This document shows, piece by piece, positions 1-57,865 of a stretch of 64,000 nucleotides of DNA (positions are counted from its first letter, which is position 1; every line of letters begins with the position of its first letter). The notes under the pieces were generated by a model. The model saw only the letters and a program-made list of their open reading frames with translations, searched no databases and was not told where the DNA came from. The translations under genes and the position numbers were made by a program. Origin of the DNA: Octopus vulgaris (taxonomy: Eukaryota); contig OX597819.1 of the NCBI GenBank assembly GCA_951406725.2, positions 129,890,001 through 129,954,000 of the forward strand, given 5' to 3'.

Positions 1-3000
1 CAAGTTCGATAAAATGACGTAGCGGTTCGCCAAAAAAGATCGATAAAATGACTTAGCAGTTCGCCAAACAAAATCGATAAAATGACGTAGTAGTTCGCCA
101 AACTAGATCGATAAAATGAACTAGCGGTTCGCCAAACGAGATCGATAAAATGACGTAGGGATTCTTCAAACGAGATCGATAAAATGACTTATCGGTTCGC
201 TAAACAAGATCGATAAAATGAACTAGCGGTTCGCTAAACGAGATCGATAAAATGACTTAGCTGTTCGGCAAACGAGATCGATAAAATGACGTAGCGATTC
301 GCCAAACGAGATCGATAATATGACGTCGCGGATCGACAAACCAGATCGATAAAATGACTTAGCGGTTCGTCAAACGAGATCGTTAAAATGACGTACCGGT
401 TCGACAAACGAGATCGATAATATGACGTCGCCGATCGACAAACCAGATCGATAAAATGACGTAGCGGTTCGCCAAACGAGATCGATAAAATGAACTAGTG
501 GTTCGGCAAACGAGATCCATAAAATGACGTAGCGATTCGACAAACGAGATCGATAAATTGACGTAGCGGTTCGCCAAACGAGATTGATAAAATGACCTAG
601 AGGTTCGCCAAACGAGATCGATAAAATGACATAGCGGTTCACCAAAAGACATCGATAAAATGACGTAGCGGTTCGCCAAACAAGATCGATATAATGACGT
701 AGCTGGTCGCCAAACAAGTTCGATAAAATGACGTAGCGGTTCGCCAAATGAGATCGATAAAATGACTTAGCGGTTCGCCAAACAAGATCGTTAAAATGAC
801 GTAGTAGTTCGCCAAACTAGATCGATAAAATGAACTAGCGGTTCGCCAAATGAGATCGATAAAATGACGTAGTGATTCGCCAAACGAGATCGATAAAATG
901 ACTTATCGGTTCGCTAAACGAGATCGAAAAATGAACTAGCGGTTCGCCAAACGAGATCGATAAAATGACGTAGCGGTTCGCTAAACGCGATCGAGAAAAT
1001 GACTTAGCAGTTCACCAAACATGATCGATAAAATGACGTAGCGGTTCGACAAACATGATCGATAAAATGACGTAGCGATTCGCCAAACGAGATCGATAAT
1101 ATGACTTCGCGGATCGACAAACCTGATCGATAAAATAATTTAGCGGTTAACCAAACGAGACCGGTAAAATGACGTAGCGGTTCGCCAAACGAGATCGATA
1201 AAATGACGTAGCGTTTCCCCGAAAGAGTTCGTTAAAATGACCTAGCGGTTCGCCAAACAAGATCGATAAAATGACGTAGTAGTTCGCCAAACTAGATCGA
1301 TAAAATGAACTAGCGGTTCGCCAAATGAGATCGATAAAATGACGTAGTGATTCGACAAACGAGATCGATAAAATGACTTATCGGTTCGCTAAACGAGATC
1401 GAAAAATAACTTAGCGGTTCGCTAAACGAGGTCGAAAAAATGACTTAGCGGTTCACCAAACATGATCGATAAAATGACGTAGCGATTCGCCAAACGAGAT
1501 CGATAATATGACTTCGCGGATCGACAAACCTTATCGATAAAATGATTTAGCGGTTAACCAAACGAGATCGATAAAATGACGTAGCATTTCCCCGAAAGAG
1601 TTCGTTAAAATGAACTAGCGGTTCGCCAAATATTATCGATAAAATGACTTAGAGGTTCGCACAACAAGATCGATAAAATGACTTAGCGGTTCGCCAATCG
1701 AGTTCGATAAAATGACTTAGCAATTCAACAAACAAGATCGATAAAATGACGTACCGGTTCGACCAATGAGATCGATAGAATGAACTAGCGGTTCGCCAAA
1801 GTACATTGATAAAATGACGTAGCATTTCTCTAAACGAGATTGATAAAATGACTTAGCTGTTCATCAAACGAGATTGATAAAAATGAACTAGCTGTTCGCC
1901 AAACGAGATAGATAAATTGACATAGCGTTTCCCCGAAAGAGGTCGTTAAAATGACATAGCGGTTCGCCAAATAAGATCGATAAAATGAGTTAGAGGTTCG
2001 CACAACAATTTCGATAAAATGAATAAGCGGTTCGCCAATCGAGATCGATAAAATGACTTAGCAATTCAACAAACAAGATCGATAAAATGACGTATGGTTC
2101 GACCAACGAGATCGATAAAATGATCTAGCGGTTCGCCAAAGTACATTGATAAAATGACGTAGCGTTTCTCTAAACGAGATTAATAAAATGACTTAGCTGT
2201 TCATCAAACGAGATTGATAAAATGACTTAGCTGTTGGCCAAACGAGATCGATAAAATGACTTAGCGGTTCACCAAACAAGATCGATATAATGACGTAGCT
2301 GGTCGCCAAACAAGATCGATAAAATGACTTAGCGGTTGCCAAATAACATCGATAAAATGACTTAGCAGTTCGCCAAACAAGATCGATAAAATGACGTAGT
2401 AGTTCGCCAAACGAGATCGATAAAATGAACTAGCGGTTCGCCAAACGAGATCAATGAAATTACTTAGCGATTCAACAAACGAGATCTATAAAATGACTTG
2501 GCTGGTCGCTAAACGAGATCGATAAAATGACGTAGCAGATCGCCTAACAAGATCGATAAAATGACACTAGCGGTTCAACAAACGCGGTCGATAAAATGAC
2601 ATAGTGCTTCGCCAAATAAGATCGAGAAAATGAGTAGCGGTTCCCCAAACAAGATCGAGAAAATGATACTAGCGGTTCACCAAATGAGATTGATAAAATC
2701 ACGTAGCGGTTCGACAAATGACACCGATAAAATGACAGCGGTTTACCAAACGAGGATGTTAAAATGACCTAGATCGATAAAATGACTTAGTGGTTCGCCC
2801 AACAAGATCGATAAAATAAATTAGCGGTTCGCCAATCAGAATCGATAAAATGACTTAGCAATTCAACATACAAGATCGATAAAATGACGTACCGGTTCGA
2901 CAAACGAGATCGATAAAATGACCTAGCGGTTCGCCAAAGGATAATGATAAAAAGAAGTAGCGTTTCTCTAAACGAAATTGATAAAATGACTTAGCTGTTC

Positions 3001-4450
3001 ATCACAGGAGATCGATAAAATGAATTAGAGGTTCGCCAAACGAGACCGACAAAATGACTTAGCAGTTCACCAAACGAATTCAATAAAATGAACTAGCGGT
3101 TCGCCAAAGGTGATCGATAAATTGACTTAGCGATTCGACAAACGAGATCGATAAAATGACATAGCGGTTCGCCAAACAAGATCGTGAAAATGTCTTAGTG
3201 GATCGCTAAAGGAGATCAATAAAATGACTTAGCGGCTCGACAAAAGAGATCGATTAAACGACGTACCGTTTCGGTAAATGAGATCGATAAAATGACTTAG
3301 CGGTTCGACAAACGAGATCGATATAATGACGTAGTGGTTCGCCAAACAAGATCGATAAAATGACGTAGCGGTTCGCCAAATGAGATCGATGAAATGACTT
3401 AGCGATTCAACAAACAAGATCGATAAAATGACGTAGCAGTTTGCCAAACGAGTTCGATATGATGACGTAGCCATTCGACAAACGAGATCGATAAAATGAC
3501 TTAGCGTTTCGATAAACGAGTTCGATAAAACGATGTACCGGTTCGCTAAACGAGATCGATAAAACGACGTACCGGATCGCTAAACGAGATCGATAAAATG
3601 AAATAGCGATTTGACAAAGGAGATCGATAAAATGACTTAGCAGTTCGACAAAGGAGATCGATAAGATGACGTAGCGGATTGCCAAACGTGATCGATAAAA
3701 TGATTTAGCGGTTCGACAAACAAGACCGATAAAATGTCTTAGCGGTTCGCCAAATAAAATCAATAAAATGATTAAGCGGTTCCTCTTACGAGATCGATAA
3801 AATGACTTAGCGATTCAACAAACGCTATCGATAAATTGACGTACCAGTTCGACATACGAGATAGATAAAATGACGTAGCTGTTCGCCAAATAAGATCGAT
3901 AAAATGACGTACCGATTCTCTATACGAGATCGATAGAATGATGTAGTGGTTCACCAAACGAGATCGATAAAATGAATTAGCGGTTCGACAAATGAGATCG
4001 ATAAAATGACCTAGCGGTTCGCCAAATACGATCAATAAAATGACATAGCGGTTCACCTAATGAGATCGATAAAATGACCTAGTGGTTCGCCAATCGAGTT
4101 CGATAAAATGACTTACCGATTCAACAAACAAGATCGATAAATTGACGTACCGGTTTGACATACGAGATAGATAAAATGGAGTAGCGGTTCGCCAAATAAG
4201 ATCGATAAAATTACATAGCGTTTCTCTAAACGAGATCGGTAAAATGACTTAGCATTTCACCAAACGAGATCGATAAAATGAACTAGCGGTTCGCTAAACA
4301 AGATCGATAAAATGACCTAGCGATTCGACAAACGAGACCGATAAAATGACTTAGCAGATCGAAAAAATGACTTAGCGGTTCACCATTGAAATCGATAAAA
4401 TGAACTAGCGGTTCGCCAAACAAGATCGATAAAATGATCAATAAAATGAT
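1..4450. repeat. Satellite DNA, 34-bp monomer (consensus AAACGAGATCGATAAAATGACGTAGCGGTTCGCC), about 130 copies, open at the left edge of the window
   Basis: CGATAAAATG recurs every 34 bp (e.g. positions 7 and 41). The array is CpG-rich and appears more divergent toward 4450. Confidence 0.97.
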
Positions 4451-6010
4451 GAAAACTTCCTGGGAAGTCTCGAGGAATTTCGAACTTCCTCGAAAATTGG
4501 TCCAAAACTGCATGGAAACTTCCGAGGATTTTCTAACTTCCGGTAAATTTGGTCGGAAACTTCCTGGGAAGTTCTGAGTATTTTCGAACTTCCAGGAAAT
4601 TTCGTCGAAAACTTCATGCGAAGTTCCGAGGATTTTCTTGCGGGAAATTTGGCCGAAAATTGCATGGAAACTTCCAAGGATTTTCTAACTTCCAGGAAAT
4701 TTCGTCGAAAATTTGTAAGAAAGTCCCGAGATATATTTGGTCGAAAACTTCATCGGAATTTCCGAGGATTTTCTAAATTCCGGGAAATCTGGTGGAAAAC
4801 TAAATGGGAAGTTCCCAGGATTTTCTTACTTCCGGGAAATTTAGTCAAAAACTTCCTGGCAAGTTCGAGGATCTTCTAGCATTCCAGAAATTAAATCGGA
4901 AACTACATGGGAAGTTCCAAGGATTTTCTAACTCCCCGGAAATTACGTCGAAAACTTCTGGGAAGTTCCGAGGATTTTCTAACTTTCCGGAAATGCCCTC
5001 GAAAATTCGATGGATTTCCTAACTTCCGGGGAAACTTCTGGGTAATTCCGAGGATATTCTAACCTCCCGGAAATTTCGTCGAAAATTTCATTGAATTTCC
5101 AGGAAAGTTCCAAAGGATTTTCTAACATCCCGGAAATTACGTCGAAAACTGCATGGGAATTTCCACACATTTCCCATTCCCGCGAAATTTCGTCGGAAAC
5201 TTCCTGGAAAGTTCCCAGGATATTCTAAATTCCGGGAAATCTGGTGGAAAACCGCATGGGAATTTCCGAGGATTTTTAACTTGCGGGAAATTTGGTTGAA
5301 AACTTCTAGCTTCCGGGAATTTTGTCGAAAACTTCCAGAAAAGTTCCGAGGATTTTCTAACTCCCGGGAAATTTCGTCGAAAACGTCTGGGAAGTTCCGA
5401 GGATTTTCTATCTTCCGGGAAATTTGGTCGAAATCTTCCAGGAAAGTTCCGAGGATTTTCTAACTTTCCGGAAATTCCGTCGAAATGTTCCGAGGATTTT
5501 CTAACTTTTCGGAAATGCCGTCGAAAATTCCAAGGATTTCCTAACTTCCGGGAAATTTCGTCAAAAACCTCTGTGTAGTTCCGAGGATATTCTAACTTCC
5601 GGGAAATTTGGTCCCAAACTTCCTTGGAAGTTCCGAGGATTTTCACGCTTCCGGGAAATTTCGTCGAAAACTTCCAGGGAAGTTCCGAGGTTTTTCTAAC
5701 TTCCCCGAAATTTCGTCGAAAACTGCATGGGAAGTTCCAAGGATTTTCTAGCTGCCGGGAAATTTCGTCGAAAACTTCCAGGGAAGTTCCGAGGATTTTC
5801 TAACTTCCCGGAAATTTCGTCGAAAATATATGGGAAGTTCCAAGGATTTCCTGACTCCTTGGAAATTTCGTCGAAATCTGCTGGGAAGTTCTGGCGATTT
5901 TCTAACTTTCGGGAAATTTGGTCAAAAACTTCCTGGGAAGTTCCGAGTATTTTCTAACTTCCGGGAAAATATGTCGAAAAGTGCATGGGAATTTACTAGG
6001 ATTTTCTAAC
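4451..6010. repeat. Satellite DNA, 52-bp monomer (consensus AAAACTTCCTGGGAAGTTCCGAGGATTTTCTAACTTCCGGGAAATTTCGTCG), about 30 copies
   Basis: ATTTCGTCG recurs at a 52-bp period (e.g. 5762 and 5814). It starts abruptly at the end of the 34-bp array. Confidence 0.95.
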
Positions 6011-12248: not shown

Positions 12249-12391
12249 AGGCGTGGCTGTGTGATAAGAAGCTTGCTTTTCAACCACATGGTTCCGGTTT
12301 CAGTCCCACTGCGTGGCACCTTGTGTTCGAGACGCCGACCTTGTGAGTGGATTTGGCTGATGGAAATTGACTAAAGCCCGTATTGTATATG

Positions 12392-12462
<71 letters not shown>

Positions 12463-12690
12463 GTGTATGTGTGTGTTTATGTCTGTGTTTGTCCTCTACC
12501 ACCGCTTGACAAACGTTGTTGGTGTGTTTACGTTCCCGTAACTAATCAGTTCGGCAAAAAGGGCCTACAGAATAAGTATTCGATTTTACAAACAATAAGT
12601 CTTTGGGTAGATTTCTTCGACTAAAATCCTTAAATGTGGTGCACCAGTATGGACCCAGCCAAATGACTGACACAAGTAAAAGATAAAAGA
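12249..12690 (+). mobile_element. tRNA-derived SINE, family C (diverged, internal (TG)n)
   Basis: Head GGCGTGGCTGTGTG...TTTCAGTCCC. Tail GTGGTGCACCAGTATGG...AAATGACTGA...TAAAAGA. Confidence 0.85.
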
Positions 12691-19137: not shown

Positions 19138-19530
19138 CGGCATGAGCGGCTGTGTGGTAAGTAGCTTGCTGACCAACAACATGGTTCCGCGTTCAGTCCC
19201 ACTGCGTGGCATCTTGGGCAAGTGTCTTCTGCTATAGCCTCGGGCCGACCAATGCCTTGTGAGTGGATTTGGTAGACGGAAACTGAAAGAAGCCTGTCGT
19301 ATATATGTATATATATGTATGTGTGTGTCTGTGTTTGTCCCCCTAGCATTGCTTGATAACCGATGCTGATGTGTTTACGTCCCCGTCACTTAGCGGTTCG
19401 GCAAAAGAGACAGATAGAATAAGTACAGGGCTTACAAAGAATAAGTCCCGGGGTCGATTTGCTCGACTAAAGGCGGTGCTCCAGCATGGCCGCAGTCAAA
19501 TGACTGAAACAAGTAAAAGAGTAAAAGAGT
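19138..19530 (+). mobile_element. SINE family C, near full length
   Basis: A box GGCTGTGTGG, B box GTTCAGTCCC, internal TA/TG tract, tail (GTAAAAGA)n. Confidence 0.92.
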
Positions 19531-19942
19531 ATGGTATAGTTGTGCAAATCACAGTCGGATTGTGGTTGTGTTTTCAGCTCTCTGGTGAAAATTAACTGGG
19601 AAAACCCATGAATTCAGGAGTTCAAGGTGTGCTGTGTCCATTTCGTTTTAAGTCGTGTCTTTTACAAGGTCGCTTGACCCGCTAGAAAAAGCAGGCAAAT
19701 CTTCCTCAACACCATAACAATGGCTTAAGTTAAGATTACAATGGATTATGTAGTCTCTGACACACAGACAGACAAGATGGTGAAGACTAGAACCTTGGTC
19801 ACAGTGTCTAATCAGTCAGTTTTGGGGATGATCGAGGGGTGGGGTAGGGCGGATAGCTAACAATAACAACAACCAAAAGAACAAAAGCAGATTAATGTGC
19901 GTTTGTGTGTGGTGTGTGTGTGTGAGTTTGTTTGCATGTGTT

Positions 19943-21053: not shown

Positions 21054-21488
21054 CTTTATCCGCTCCAACTCTAATTAATTCCCGACATTCTTTTCTTTTC
21101 ACTTCTCATGTATACCACTATACCACCACGTAACCTAATTACCGACATTACCCCCCACACTTGACATCGCAACTACCACCCCACTTTGTCCCCCCACCCC
21201 CTTAACACCGTTTAATTCTGCGTTTCTTCCCCGCCTCCACTCCTGCCACCCCCAGTACTTCATTCAGTTAGAGAAAAAGGAAATAAATATTACATGGTAG
21301 AATGATGAGCATTACTTGTGGGGTAAGGTGACGATACGGTGATGGTTGTACAAAGAAGGGTTGTTATATTGTCAGATATATAAAAAGCTACCAAAATTGC
21401 GAAAGATGTCTTGGGCAAAGAATTTCAGAAGTGTTGACGTGCATTTCTATTCTCATGGACACTACTTTGAGAAACATGCCGGACAATA

Positions 21489-22082
21489 TACCTATTTCTT
21501 TACTACCCACAAGGGGCTAGACACAGATAGGACAAACAAGGACAGACAAACGGATTAAGTCGATTATATCGACTCCAGTGCGTAACTGGTACTTATTTAA
21601 TCGACCTCGAAAGGATGAAAGGCAAAGTCGACCTCGGCGGAATTTGAACTCAGAACGTAGCGGCAGACGAAATACCTATTTCTTTACTACCCACAAGGGG
21701 CTAAACACAGAGAGGACAAACAAGGACAGACAAACGGATTAAGTCGATTATATCGACCCCAGTGCGTAACTGGTACTTATTTTATCGACCCCGAAAGGAT
21801 GGACGGCAAAGTCGACTTCGGCGGAATTTAAACTCAGAACATAGCGGCAGACGAAATACCTATTTCTTTACTACCCACAAGGGGCTAAACACAGAGAGGA
21901 CAAACAAGGACAGACACACGGATTAAGTCGATTACATCGACCCCAGTGCGTAACTGGTACTTATTTAATCGACCCCGAAAGGATGAAAGGCAAAGTCGAC
22001 CTTGGCGGAATTTGAACTCAGAACGTAACGGCAGACGAAATACCGCGAAGCATTTCGCCCGGCGTGCTAACGATTCTGCCAG
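21489..22082 (-). mobile_element. SINE family B trimer: one head plus three 184-bp units
   Basis: CCTATTTCTTTACTACCCAC at 21491, 21675 and 21859. A single head (CGTGCTAACGATTCTGCCAG) at about 22040-22082. Confidence 0.92.
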
Positions 22083-30842: not shown

Positions 30843-30972
30843 TAATAAGAAGCTTGCTTCCCAGCCACATGGTTCCGGGTTCAATACCACAGTATGGCAC
30901 TTTGGGAAAGTAGCTTCTAGTATACTCTTGAGCCGACCACTGTGTGTGTGTCTGCTTGTGTGTGTGCGTGTG

Positions 30973-31003
<31 letters not shown>

Positions 31004-31195
31004 TTATATTAGTCCCCTACAATCGATTGACAACTGATGTTGGTGTATTTATGTCCCCGTAACCTAGCGGTTCGGCAAAAGATCCGACAGAATAAGTACC
31101 AAGCTTTAAAAAATAATTCATTCAGCTAAAATTCTTCAAGGTGGTGCCCCAGTATGACCGAAGTCTAATGACTGAAACAAATAAAGATAAAAGAA
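30843..31195 (+). mobile_element. SINE family C (diverged, internally deleted)
   Basis: GGTTCCGGGTTCAATACC, CCCCGTAACCTAGCGGTTCGGCAAAA and GGTGGTGCCCCAGTATG. Confidence 0.85.
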
Positions 31196-33369: not shown

Positions 33370-33781
33370 GCGCAGGAGTGGCTGTGTGGTAAGTAGCTTG
33401 CTTAACAACCACATGGTTCCGGGTTCCGTCCCACTGCGTGGCACCTTAGGCAAGTGTCTTCTACTATAGCCTCGGGCCGACCAAAGCCTTGTGAGTGGAT
33501 TTGGTAGACGGAAACTGAAAGAAGCCCGTCGTATATATGTATATATATATGTGTGTGTGTGCGTGTATGTTTGTGTGTCTGTGTTTGTCCCCCTAGCATT
33601 GCTTGACAACCGATGCTGGTGTGTTTATGTCCCCGTTACTTAGCGGTTAGGCAAAAGAGACCGATTGAATAAGTACTGGGCTTACAAAGAATAAGTCCTG
33701 GGGTCGAGTTGCTCGATTAAAAGGTGGTGCTCCAGCATGGCCGCAGTCAAATGACTGAAACAAGTAAAAGAGTAAAAGAGT
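33370..33781 (+). mobile_element. SINE family C, full length
   Basis: Matches the family consensus with a (GTAAAAGA)2 tail. Confidence 0.93.
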
Positions 33782-33785
33782 AATA

Positions 33786-34763
33786 GGCACAGGCGTGGCT
33801 GTGTGGTAATAACTTTGCTTCCAGCCACATGGTTCCGGGTTCAGTCCCACTTTGTCGCATCTTGGGCAAATGTCTTCTCCTATAGCCTCGGGCTAACCAA
33901 AGCTTTGAGAGTGGATTTGGTAGACAGAAACTGAAAGAAGCCTGTCGTATATATGTATATGTACACGCACACTACGCACGCGCGTACATATATCTATGTA
34001 TGTGCATATGTACATATATATAATATATATATGTGTGTGTTTATGTATATATACATATATATGTGTGAGTGTGTATATGTATGTATACATATATATATGT
34101 GTGTGTATATGTATATATACATATATATATGTGTGTTTATATATATATATACATATATATATATGTGTGTGTATATATATATATATACATATGTATATGT
34201 GTGTGTATATGTATATATATACATATGTATATGTGTGTGTATATGTATATATATTCATATGTATATGTGTGTGTATATGTATATATATACATATGTATAT
34301 GTGTGTGTATATGTATATATACATATATATATGTGTGTGTATATGTATATATACATATGTATATGTGTGTGTATATGTATACATACATATGTATATGTGT
34401 GTATATGTATATATACATATGTATATGTGTGTGTATATGTATACATACATATGTATATGTGTGTATATGTATATATACATATGTATATGTGTGTGTATAT
34501 GTATATATATGTGTATATATATATATATATGATATATGTATGTATGCGTGTATATGTATGTGTATATATATATATATATGATATATGTATGTATGCGTGT
34601 ATATGTGTGTTTGTCTACACTTGTCCCTCCCATCACCCCTTGACAACCGGTGCTAGTGTGTTTACGTCCCCGTAACTTAGAGGTTCGGCAGAAAAATCTG
34701 TTCAAGACGGTGCTGCAGCTTGGCCACAGTCAAATGACTGAAACAGGAGAAAGAATAAAAGAA
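33786..34763 (+). mobile_element. SINE family C with an internal TA/TG microsatellite expanded to about 660 bp
   Basis: Head at 33786-33948 and tail at 34610-34763 flank the expansion. Confidence 0.88.
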
Positions 34764-44879: not shown

Positions 44880-45429
44880 GAAAGTGTGTGTGTAGGTGTG
44901 TGAGAGAGAGAGAGTCTGAAGGTTAGATAGAAAATAATTTTTATAATCTACTTGAATTGAGATGGGATCGCTTTAATGTGCTTCCACTGAGCAAGAATCT
45001 ATGAAAAAGACTCATCACAAAATTTCAAAAATGATATAATTTGAGATAAAGAAAGAAAAGATTAAATTTTAGCACCCATTTTATTATGACAATAGGATAA
45101 AAAATAACAGCGAATACATTGTGAATCAGAGTTAAGATGAGAAAGTACAATTTATTAAAAAAAAAATTTCTTATGACAAATTGTGTGCAATACTCTTTTA
45201 CTCTTTTTCTCTTTTACTCTTTTACTTGTTTCAGTCATTTGACTGCGGCCATGCTGGAGCACCGCCTTTTTAATCGAGCAACTCGACCCCGGGACTTATT
45301 CTTTTGTAAGCCCAGTACTTATTCTATCGGTCTGTTTTGCCGAACCGCTAAGTAACGGGGACATAAACACACCAGCATCGGCTGTCAAGCAATGCTAGGG
45401 GAACAAACACAGACACACAAACACACACA

Positions 45430-45509
<80 letters not shown>

Positions 45510-46257
45510 CTTATATACCACGGGCTTCTTTTAGTTTCCGTCTACCAAATCCACTCACAAGGCTTTGGTCGGCCCGAGGCTATAGTAGAAGACACTTGCC
45601 CAAGGTGCCACGCAGTGGGACTGAACCCGGAACCATGTGGTTGGTAAACAAGCTACTTACCACACAGCTACTCCTGCGCCTCTCTCTCTCTCTTCCTAAG
45701 ACTTGAGAGATAGAAAGATTGAATAACAAAGGTATTGACCCACGGTCTAGAGAAACTGACCACGGTGATTATTAGCGGGTGGAATTTACCATGGTGGAAA
45801 ACACCGTGATAGAATATACCCATGCAATACTTCTTAAAAATTGCAGAGGGTTTCCATTTTGATATTCCTGAACTAGTTTCTTCAGTCGTGCATCAATAAT
45901 TTAATAGGTCTTTTTTGCTGTTGTTGAGTCTCCACGTCGAACGTGTGTAGTTTTTGTCTGGCTTAATCCTTCCACAGATTTAAGAGCAGTGCGTAGTTTC
46001 CACAAATTTGGATGTGTGGATGTTAGTGATGAGCGCAAAGCACTGTGGTGCCCTTCTAATAATTATTTGATAATGATGATGATAATTTCACCTATGGTGA
46101 AATTTACCATAGTGCGTGGAGGAATTTACCTCTGGTAAAATTTACCTGGTGGAATTTTTCGTAATGTAATTTTTCGTGGTGGAATTTTTCGTGGTGGAAT
46201 TTTTCGTGGTGAAATTTTTCGTGGTGGAATTTACCGCGGCGGAATTTACCGGTCACC
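44672..46257 (-). mobile_element. Non-autonomous MULE/Mutator-like derivative with a transposase C-terminal relic (about 45820-46060)
   Basis: Terminal inverted GGTAAATTCC repeat arrays. Minus frame reads LEGHHSALRSSLTSTHPNLWKL...KKTY*IIDARLKKLVQEY...FLRSIA, matching the MULE (TNN)xxEGWH..HPNIW pattern. Confidence 0.72.
45192..45680 (-). mobile_element. SINE family C nested in the MULE derivative
   Basis: Full reverse-complement consensus with an internal (TA)n tract. Confidence 0.93.
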
Positions 46258-46436: not shown

Positions 46437-46745
46437 CGCGCATTTGTGTGTGTGTGTTTGGGTGTGTGTGTTTGTGTTGTGTGTGCGCGTGCGTGCGTGT
46501 GTGTTTCTGGTGTGTAAGTCCTAAATGGGCCGAAATGCACATGGCGCTCTCGCTGGTCGCTCTAGCGACGAATGTTCGTCTCCGTCACTCATATTTATTG
46601 TTCTTAACAGAGCAAGTCTATAACGGTTGTTACCTCGGGATAAATACTGCAGTAACTGGCCTGTGAACAGTATGTATACACGAAATATGATACATAGTGG
46701 GCTATTTTAATTCAATTCTCTCTCCTATTCTGGATATATACATAT

Positions 46746-47152
46746 ACTCTTTTACTCTTTTTCTTGTTTCAGTCATTTGACTGCGGCCATGCTGGAGCAC
46801 AGCCTTTAGTCGATCAAATCGACCCTGGGACTTATTCTTTGTAAGCCTAATACTTATTTTATCGGTCTATTTTTTGCCGAACCATTAAGTTACGGGGACG
46901 TAAACACACCAGCATCGGTTGTCAAGCGATGTTGGGGGGACAAACAGACACACAAACACGCACACATATACATATATATATATATATACGACGGGATTCT
47001 TTCAGTTTCCGTCTACCAAATCCACTCACAAGGCTTTGGTCGGCCCGAGGCTATAGTAGAATACACTTACCCAAGGTGCCACGAAGTGGGACTGAACCCG
47101 GGACCATGTGGTTCGTAAGCAAGCTACTCACCACACAGCCACTCCTACGCCT
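46746..47152 (-). mobile_element. SINE family C
   Basis: Full reverse-complement consensus. Confidence 0.92.
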
Positions 47153-57269: not shown

Positions 57270-57865
57270 TATCATAGGCACCAAGCTAGCAATTTTGGGG
57301 CAGTGGGCTAGTCGATTAATCGATCTCAGTATTTGACTCCTATTTATTTTATCTACTCCTGAAAGGATAAAAAGTAAAGTTAACATCAGTAATATGTGAA
57401 CTCAGAACGTTATGAACCAGAACAAATACTTATTTCTTTATTACCCACAAGGGGCTAAACACAGAGGAGACAAACAAGGACAGACAAACGGATTAAGTCG
57501 ATTATATCGACCCCAGTGCGTAACTGATACTTATTTAATCGACCCCGAAAGGATGAAAGACAAAGTTTACCTCGGCGGAATTTGAACTCAGAACGTAACG
57601 GCAGACGAAATACCTATTTCTTTATTACCCACAAGGGGCTAAACACAGAGGAGACAAACAAGGACAGACAAACGGATTAAGTCGATTATATCGACCCCAG
57701 TGCGTAACTGGTATTTATTTAATCGACCCCGAAAAGATGAAAGGCAAAGTTGACCTCGGCAGAATTTGAACTCAGAACGTAACGGCAGACGAAATACGGC
57801 TACGCATTTCGCCCGGCGTGCTAACGTTTCTGCCAGCTCGCCGCCTTATACCTGAACAAATACCA
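57270..57865 (-). mobile_element. SINE B dimer (57430-57845) inserted into an old B-variant at the AAATAC site
   Basis: Junctions at 57429 and 57613 (184-bp spacing). Duplication GAACAAATAC at 57420-57429 and 57854-57863. Confidence 0.88.

Follow-up and report, generated by a model that had tools for sequence, protein, structure and literature searches.

At the start of the 64,000-nucleotide stretch of Octopus vulgaris DNA analyzed here (the window, Table 1) lies an array of a 34-bp satellite whose unit resembles an internal segment of SINE C, copies of which occur further along the same window. This raises the question of whether the satellite was born from the SINE, and by what route it came to lie where it does. 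The source of a satellite is rarely traceable. In this genome one can read off a candidate founder, a series of ordered subfamilies, one capture event, and a failed 22-bp competitor, so that related species can be used to test the library model of satellite birth one locus at a time. The evidence makes it quite probable that the SINE C segment was first doubled at a TAA microhomology, then expanded within a SINE copy, and later moved out of it. A longer relay within one genome, in which a SINE fragment became a satellite that was exported by a Helitron, joined a 52-bp partner satellite, and re-entered SINEs, is offered tentatively. If this relay is true, some 200,000 parent SINEs serve as landing sites for the satellite that descended from them.

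Table 1. Repeat features of the window (positions are those of the window).
Feature	Position	Strand	Remark
34-bp satellite array, late type C/D	1..4437	+	continues 1.14 kb upstream of the window
52-bp partner satellite	4451..6010	+	short 52-bp block also precedes the 34-bp array outside the window
SINE C copy, old, ~78% to majority	12249..12690	+	segment already present (12493)
SINE C copy	19140..19531	+	homologous segment 19386-19420, 28/34 to satellite
184-bp SINE, head-to-tail multimer	21488..22044
SINE C copy, old, 77-79% to majority	30846..31194	+	segment already present (31014)
SINE C copy	33371..33782	+	homologous segment 33636-33670, 27/34 to satellite
SINE C copy	45203..45678	-	homologous segment 45321-45355, 28/34 to satellite
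SINE C copy, young	46745..47149	-	older TAAC segment start, the microhomology-bearing form
184-bp SINE, head-to-tail multimer	57397..57797

The window array and its likeness to SINE C

The whole array that reaches into the window (G000:C6:129888859-129894437) comprises ~164 units. Within window positions 1-4450, 127 monomers were detected with a mean identity of 86.6% to their consensus, and 115 of the 126 intervals between them measure 34 bases. The array contains no open reading frame of 150 codons, and the repeat is in all likelihood non-coding, selfish DNA that serves no function for the host.

The monomer corresponds to one full period of the internal SINE C segment. The gapless alignment of 29 of 33 positions described in the sequence-only reading was reproduced with the majority sequence of 51 SINE copies, and the three copies in which the segment had been placed, near 19388, 33638, and 45321 (minus strand), all carry it at 27-28 of 34 positions. 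The segment is also found in an older SINE C copy at window position 34639. When the consensus of type C, the array type that includes the window array, was compared in all rotations with both strands of window 6101-64000, the best ungapped 33-base match was 28, compared with 20-23 in 60 of 60 shuffled-monomer controls. Chance similarity or convergence could be entertained since the comparison spans only 34 bases, but this explanation is hardly credible given the shuffled controls, and it is refuted by arrays that are physically continuous with SINE flanks (see below).

A tRNA-like head and, after it, a CORE-like box give SINE C a presumable resemblance to OR1 and OR2. ARAGORN and Rfam returned no match. 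The tRNA-derived CORE SINEs OR1 and OR2 of Octopus were described by Ohshima and Okada (1994), as cited in PMC4824008 and PMC4758252.

Monomers carrying SINE-type bases had been noticed near 264, 1774, and 4334 of the window. These monomers are present, but their interpretation as SINE relics did not stand, as the SINE base occurs at background frequency at the four sites (3.1, 2.9, 1.7, and 1.3% of 2082 monomers from 58 arrays) and at each site at least one other minor base is commoner. The SINE-type bases of window-type monomers are ascribed to background mutation. The proposal that a SINE segment was tandemly amplified into the satellite is supported, with the correction that the window array did not grow in place: this array is a late, relocated member of the family that has no SINE flank and lies between 52-bp arrays.

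Direction of change and the first duplications

The age of the segment was compared with that of its surroundings in 105 SINE copies divided into three age classes (58 young, 20 middle, 27 oldest). Segment and flank identities are 0.942 and 0.942, 0.901 and 0.871, and 0.775 and 0.762 in the three classes, respectively, so that the divergence of the segment keeps pace with that of the remaining element, even in copies at 69-82% identity. Furthermore, the oldest SINE copies are more divergent than every array type (types 0.12-0.15). Position 2 of the segment is A in 22 of 27 oldest, 18 of 20 middle, and 26 of 58 young copies, and A2 is the old state. In this state the segment starts with TAAC and is followed 34 bases on by TAAG, placing a TAA microhomology at a spacing of exactly one period. 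Slippage or unequal repair between these short repeats may have made the first dimer. The 3' end of the segment extends into a motif common to a 184-bp SINE (score 79; maximum of 75 in 300 shuffles), which argues that the segment is native SINE sequence.

Intermediates were sought genome-wide, in keeping with the suggestion to look for SINE copies with a few tandem copies of the segment. The SINE-type tandem junction, with two mismatches allowed, gave 27 matches and none for the control; these matches represent 17 examined loci, the remainder being overlaps. Among them, L070 and L075 are young SINEs with a fresh local duplication (dimers) at the TAA junction, and in L070 a private base is common to the copies of the segment. 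The exact 30-letter SINE-type tandem junction had no match in the genome. Searches for a SINE flank running into satellite-type alleles gave 14 and 2 matches, all of which are single-copy SINEs.

The reverse event, in which the master gene of the SINE captured an existing satellite monomer, is very unlikely, in agreement with the preference expressed in the sequence-only reading. Similarity alone is symmetric, and concerted evolution can give arrays a young look. However, the SINE contains just one period, bounded by the microhomology; the segment is present in the oldest copies at flank-level divergence and overlaps the motif of another SINE family; and fresh duplications recur in young SINEs. 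The numbers also stand against capture. A 28-letter word from the SINE segment has 40,150 exact occurrences in the genome and is present in 19 of the 105 sampled copies, indicating ~220,000 SINE C copies. By comparison, the two exact satellite junctions occur 391 and 174 times genome-wide, of which the collected loci hold 343 and 121 in 113 arrays, indicating ~5,000 monomers (~170 kb) in the assembly, a count that collapsed arrays would escape.

Array words were also found in twelve sequencing runs under four organism labels; no RNA run was among those listed, which speaks neither for nor against expression. One run per label was examined, and all four contained the SINE in bulk, pieces of at least four tandem units, and a contig with the Helitron junction described below. 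The four labels may represent close relatives. Satellite and SINE thus occur together in 4 of 4 labels, which is also compatible with the reverse direction; no label examined had the satellite without the SINE, a pattern that had been taken to imply the reverse. Overall, the direction from SINE to satellite is well supported because genomic intermediates exist, the segment is as old as the SINE, and the array types form a nested series rooted in the SINE.

Array types, a candidate founder, and probable entry into SINEs

Among 101 arrays of at least five units, 91 were typed after the removal of 10 local duplicates. Four types were distinguished: type A (5 arrays, 31/34 to the SINE), type B (39 arrays, 30/34), type C (33 arrays including the window array, 29/34), and type D (14 arrays, 28/34). 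The changes in these types are nested away from the SINE, and no array with G at position 2 (G2) has G32 above 30%. The types are ordered by five sites and by rooting on the SINE. Among the 81 type A monomers, 11 have the SINE base G16 and 12 the SINE base C26; among the 2958 others, 113 and 93 do, respectively. Position 32 itself defines type and is not independent evidence. With hypervariable columns removed, divergence is 0.100-0.106 and alike in all four types, and consequently provides no ordering. PMC13282606 gives a rate of 0.0036 per million years and a Helitron expansion at distance 0.09; if this Octopus rate applies, a divergence of 10-14% would correspond to some 30-40 million years.

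Array ends that run into SINE flanks, which the sequence-only reading had also proposed to look for, were found at three loci. At L094 on contig C17 (G000:C17:59240732-59242484), a SINE has 52 units between its head and its tail, and the array is in register with both halves. The host SINE is 86-88% identical to the majority, an age that matches the monomers. The monomers are the most SINE-like of all and retain SINE alleles in internal units; they form higher-order repeats and are hence non-independent. No other type A array is as long as L094 (52 units compared with 7-15 in the others), within a set that was itself found with a SINE-like pattern and is subject to ascertainment. Two further arrays, L100 and L115, are of type B and are joined in register, at one end each, to SINEs other than the L094 host. 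Their hosts have no private changes in common with the L094 host, and the arrays carry derived family alleles. Recombination between arrays and SINEs is likely because separate births of L100 and L115 would need three substitutions to be repeated. Arrays can therefore probably enter SINE copies by homology.

This conclusion weakens the reading of L094 as a founder, as L094 could be such a case. If so, the SINE origin would still be true, the founder would be lost, and L094, L100, and L115 would all be later, homology-guided insertions of arrays. This reading is rather doubtful. It draws on the exact SINE register of 4 of 213 array ends (in 3 arrays), where ~0.03 are expected by estimate from SINE density, on the derived alleles and unrelated hosts of L100 and L115, and on L096 (3355-3660), a type A/B array that lies inside a 184-bp SINE and has an end in register with the motif common to both SINEs. 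Against it stand the register of L094 at both ends, its length, its internal SINE alleles, and a host as old as its monomers. L094 is rather likely to be the founder or close to it.

Putative carriers, distribution, and comparison with known systems

Canonical Helitrons have a 5' end that starts with TC after an A, and a 3' end in which a hairpin is followed by CTRR and then by T. The 5' flanks of ten arrays form one cluster that ends ~300 bp out with a hairpin, nine bases, CTAG, and then T on the opposite strand, which we take to be the 3' end of a Helitron. The terminal hairpin folds with a 6-bp stem. All 15 ends near arrays (from 16 matches, one of which is a SINE head) are directly followed by T, as are 12 of 12 unselected ends; none of these 12 has the satellite within 1.5 kb. 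Exact carrier ends number 541 in the genome. A 5' start of A followed by TC was observed in 5 of 9 distinct copies, and a unique flank in only 2; the copies without a unique 5' flank lie within longer composites. The CTAG end points to a putative canonical Helitron and away from Helentron or HINE elements.

The junction between the element and the array was found at 24 loci on 15 contigs, compared with none for the control. At 22 of these loci the array has at least three units; of the 22, 20 have an end of the CTAG type no more than 660 bp away, whereas a TC start motif beyond the array is present at only 2. A private T20 is found in the first monomer at 16 of 24 junction loci and in 69 of 884 other monomers. 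This concentration indicates a single capture event that was then copied. One type B array may have been captured by a non-autonomous Helitron at a point ~300 bp away from its hairpin-CTAG end. The array would then have been copied by rolling-circle transposition, with most copies truncated inside the array. The Helitron-type element adjoins 19 of 49 early (A2) arrays and 2 of 61 late (G2) arrays; the two late arrays (L029 and L031) have A2 at the junction and change to G2 further on. At the ends of 102 closed arrays, target-site duplications do not exceed random pairing, and array ends occur at all monomer phases. Retrotransposition of SINE and array together was rejected as the main route, with only 2 arrays ending in an in-register SINE tail; one further array ends in a SINE tail out of register.

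Capture may also explain why the 34-bp unit succeeded. The 22 bases that follow next 3' in SINE C lie between 9-base repeats, and their duplication junction has 66 exact matches, of which all eight inspected are real (e.g., L160-L167 1480-1550). Among these exact matches the unit never exceeds four consecutive copies; of the 3,308 mismatched matches, a minor part was covered. Frequent duplication alone therefore made no satellite, and capture is likely the difference between the two units. An improbable alternative is that the fixed changes of the 34-mer were favored because protein-binding motifs or hairpins aid spread. The derived bases form short palindromes and motif-like words, and the 34-mer was singled out over a commoner competitor. 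However, folded trimers range from -6.7 to -11.8 kcal/mol with no gain from the SINE to types A-D, and transposon capture suffices to explain the success. Hairpin-driven spread was likewise rejected, with no trend in the trimer folds and a z of -0.88 for the RNA fold of the dimer SINE.

Late arrays have a different neighbor. The 52-bp satellite lies beside 22 of 61 G2 arrays, a count that includes some local duplicates on C6 and C5, compared with 0 of 49 A2 arrays. The junction between the window array and the short 52-bp block that precedes it is shared with L022, L037/L038, and L043 (and L026) on C8, C5, C1, and C7. The 52-bp satellite matched neither the SINE nor the Helitron pieces with which it was compared, for the window's own array type no Helitron-type piece was found within 1.5 kb, and no single element is common to all late arrays. 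The later types may have been copied as DNA blocks that included the 52-bp satellite, a process that would have produced no target-site duplication. Further flanks are shared between contigs by late arrays (L021/L105/L111 5', L036/L042 5', L019/L024). The 52-bp satellite has a 73/74-bp variant (window 4451-6010; L025, L026, L039). Other minisatellites of 22, 10, and 9 bp adjoin late 34-bp arrays (L016 6689-10000, L017, L022, L039; L013/L014; L022 5731-6098), which suggests a common pool of mixed blocks.

With 11 further arrays, the family comprises 120+ dispersed arrays. It is small and dispersed and is no major satellite. Of the 13 arrays with at least 90 units, 8 are located in the outer tenth of a contig (p 0.0012), three of them on one arm of C6, compared with 8 of 55 short arrays. 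Later types would have grown longest near contig ends.

The closest parallels are the SINE-derived satellites sSat1-3 of squamates (Vassetzky et al. 2023, PMC10702118), a source that calls such satellites outside squamates uncertain and does not settle what lets one primary duplication succeed where most fail. In both systems, the unit comes from the interior of an abundant SINE and is shorter than the SINE, loci extend from two-copy duplications to arrays of more than 100 units, arrays of at least four middle units occur along with low-copy duplications inside SINEs, a form with both SINE termini is rare, and long loci lean to chromosome ends. In contrast, the octopus unit is 34 bp rather than 67-290 as in reptiles, and only 3 of about 110 arrays keep a SINE terminus, whereas most reptile loci do. 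The octopus case also differs in its stepwise diagnostic subfamilies, its carriage by a second class of transposon, and its invertebrate host.

The mode of spread recalls the Cg_HINE Helentrons of Crassostrea gigas, which contain satDNA-like arrays (PMC7492417; reviewed in PMC12692304). In the oyster and, putatively, here, short tandem arrays are dispersed in non-autonomous rolling-circle elements with T at the insertion site. The oyster elements lack target-site duplications, and at the array ends examined here none exceed random pairing. Unlike Cg_HINE, the octopus carrier ends in a hairpin and CTAG followed by T, which we regard as the canonical Helitron type. Only a minority of the octopus arrays ride on the carrier, the copies mostly break off inside the array, and the cargo can be traced to a SINE. 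By analogy, the octopus repeat appears to combine an sSat-like origin with a spread like that of Helitron-borne arrays. SINE-derived satellites in reptiles and Helitron-borne arrays in the oyster are known separately. No prior cephalopod case or SINE-to-Helitron relay was found in the literature searched, the scope of which excluded subscription journals, Repbase, and Dfam. No description of satellites was found in PMC13282606, and its supplement or Zenodo library may contain the 34-bp repeat.

Several arrays are further rearranged. Strand flips or large inverted duplications are frequent (L016/L017, L024, L037/L038, L098, L114, L119, L145), and the L037/L038 array shifts to a 35-bp unit. L044-L048 (G000:C6:122.44-122.49 Mb) form a multi-kb tandem segmental duplication of blocks derived from the 34-bp and 52-bp satellites, with higher-order units of 240-300 bp. 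Telomere-like TTAGGG runs lie near two arrays (L016 ~3900-4000 and L029 9759-9835), and the run at L016 sits in a dispersed repeat.
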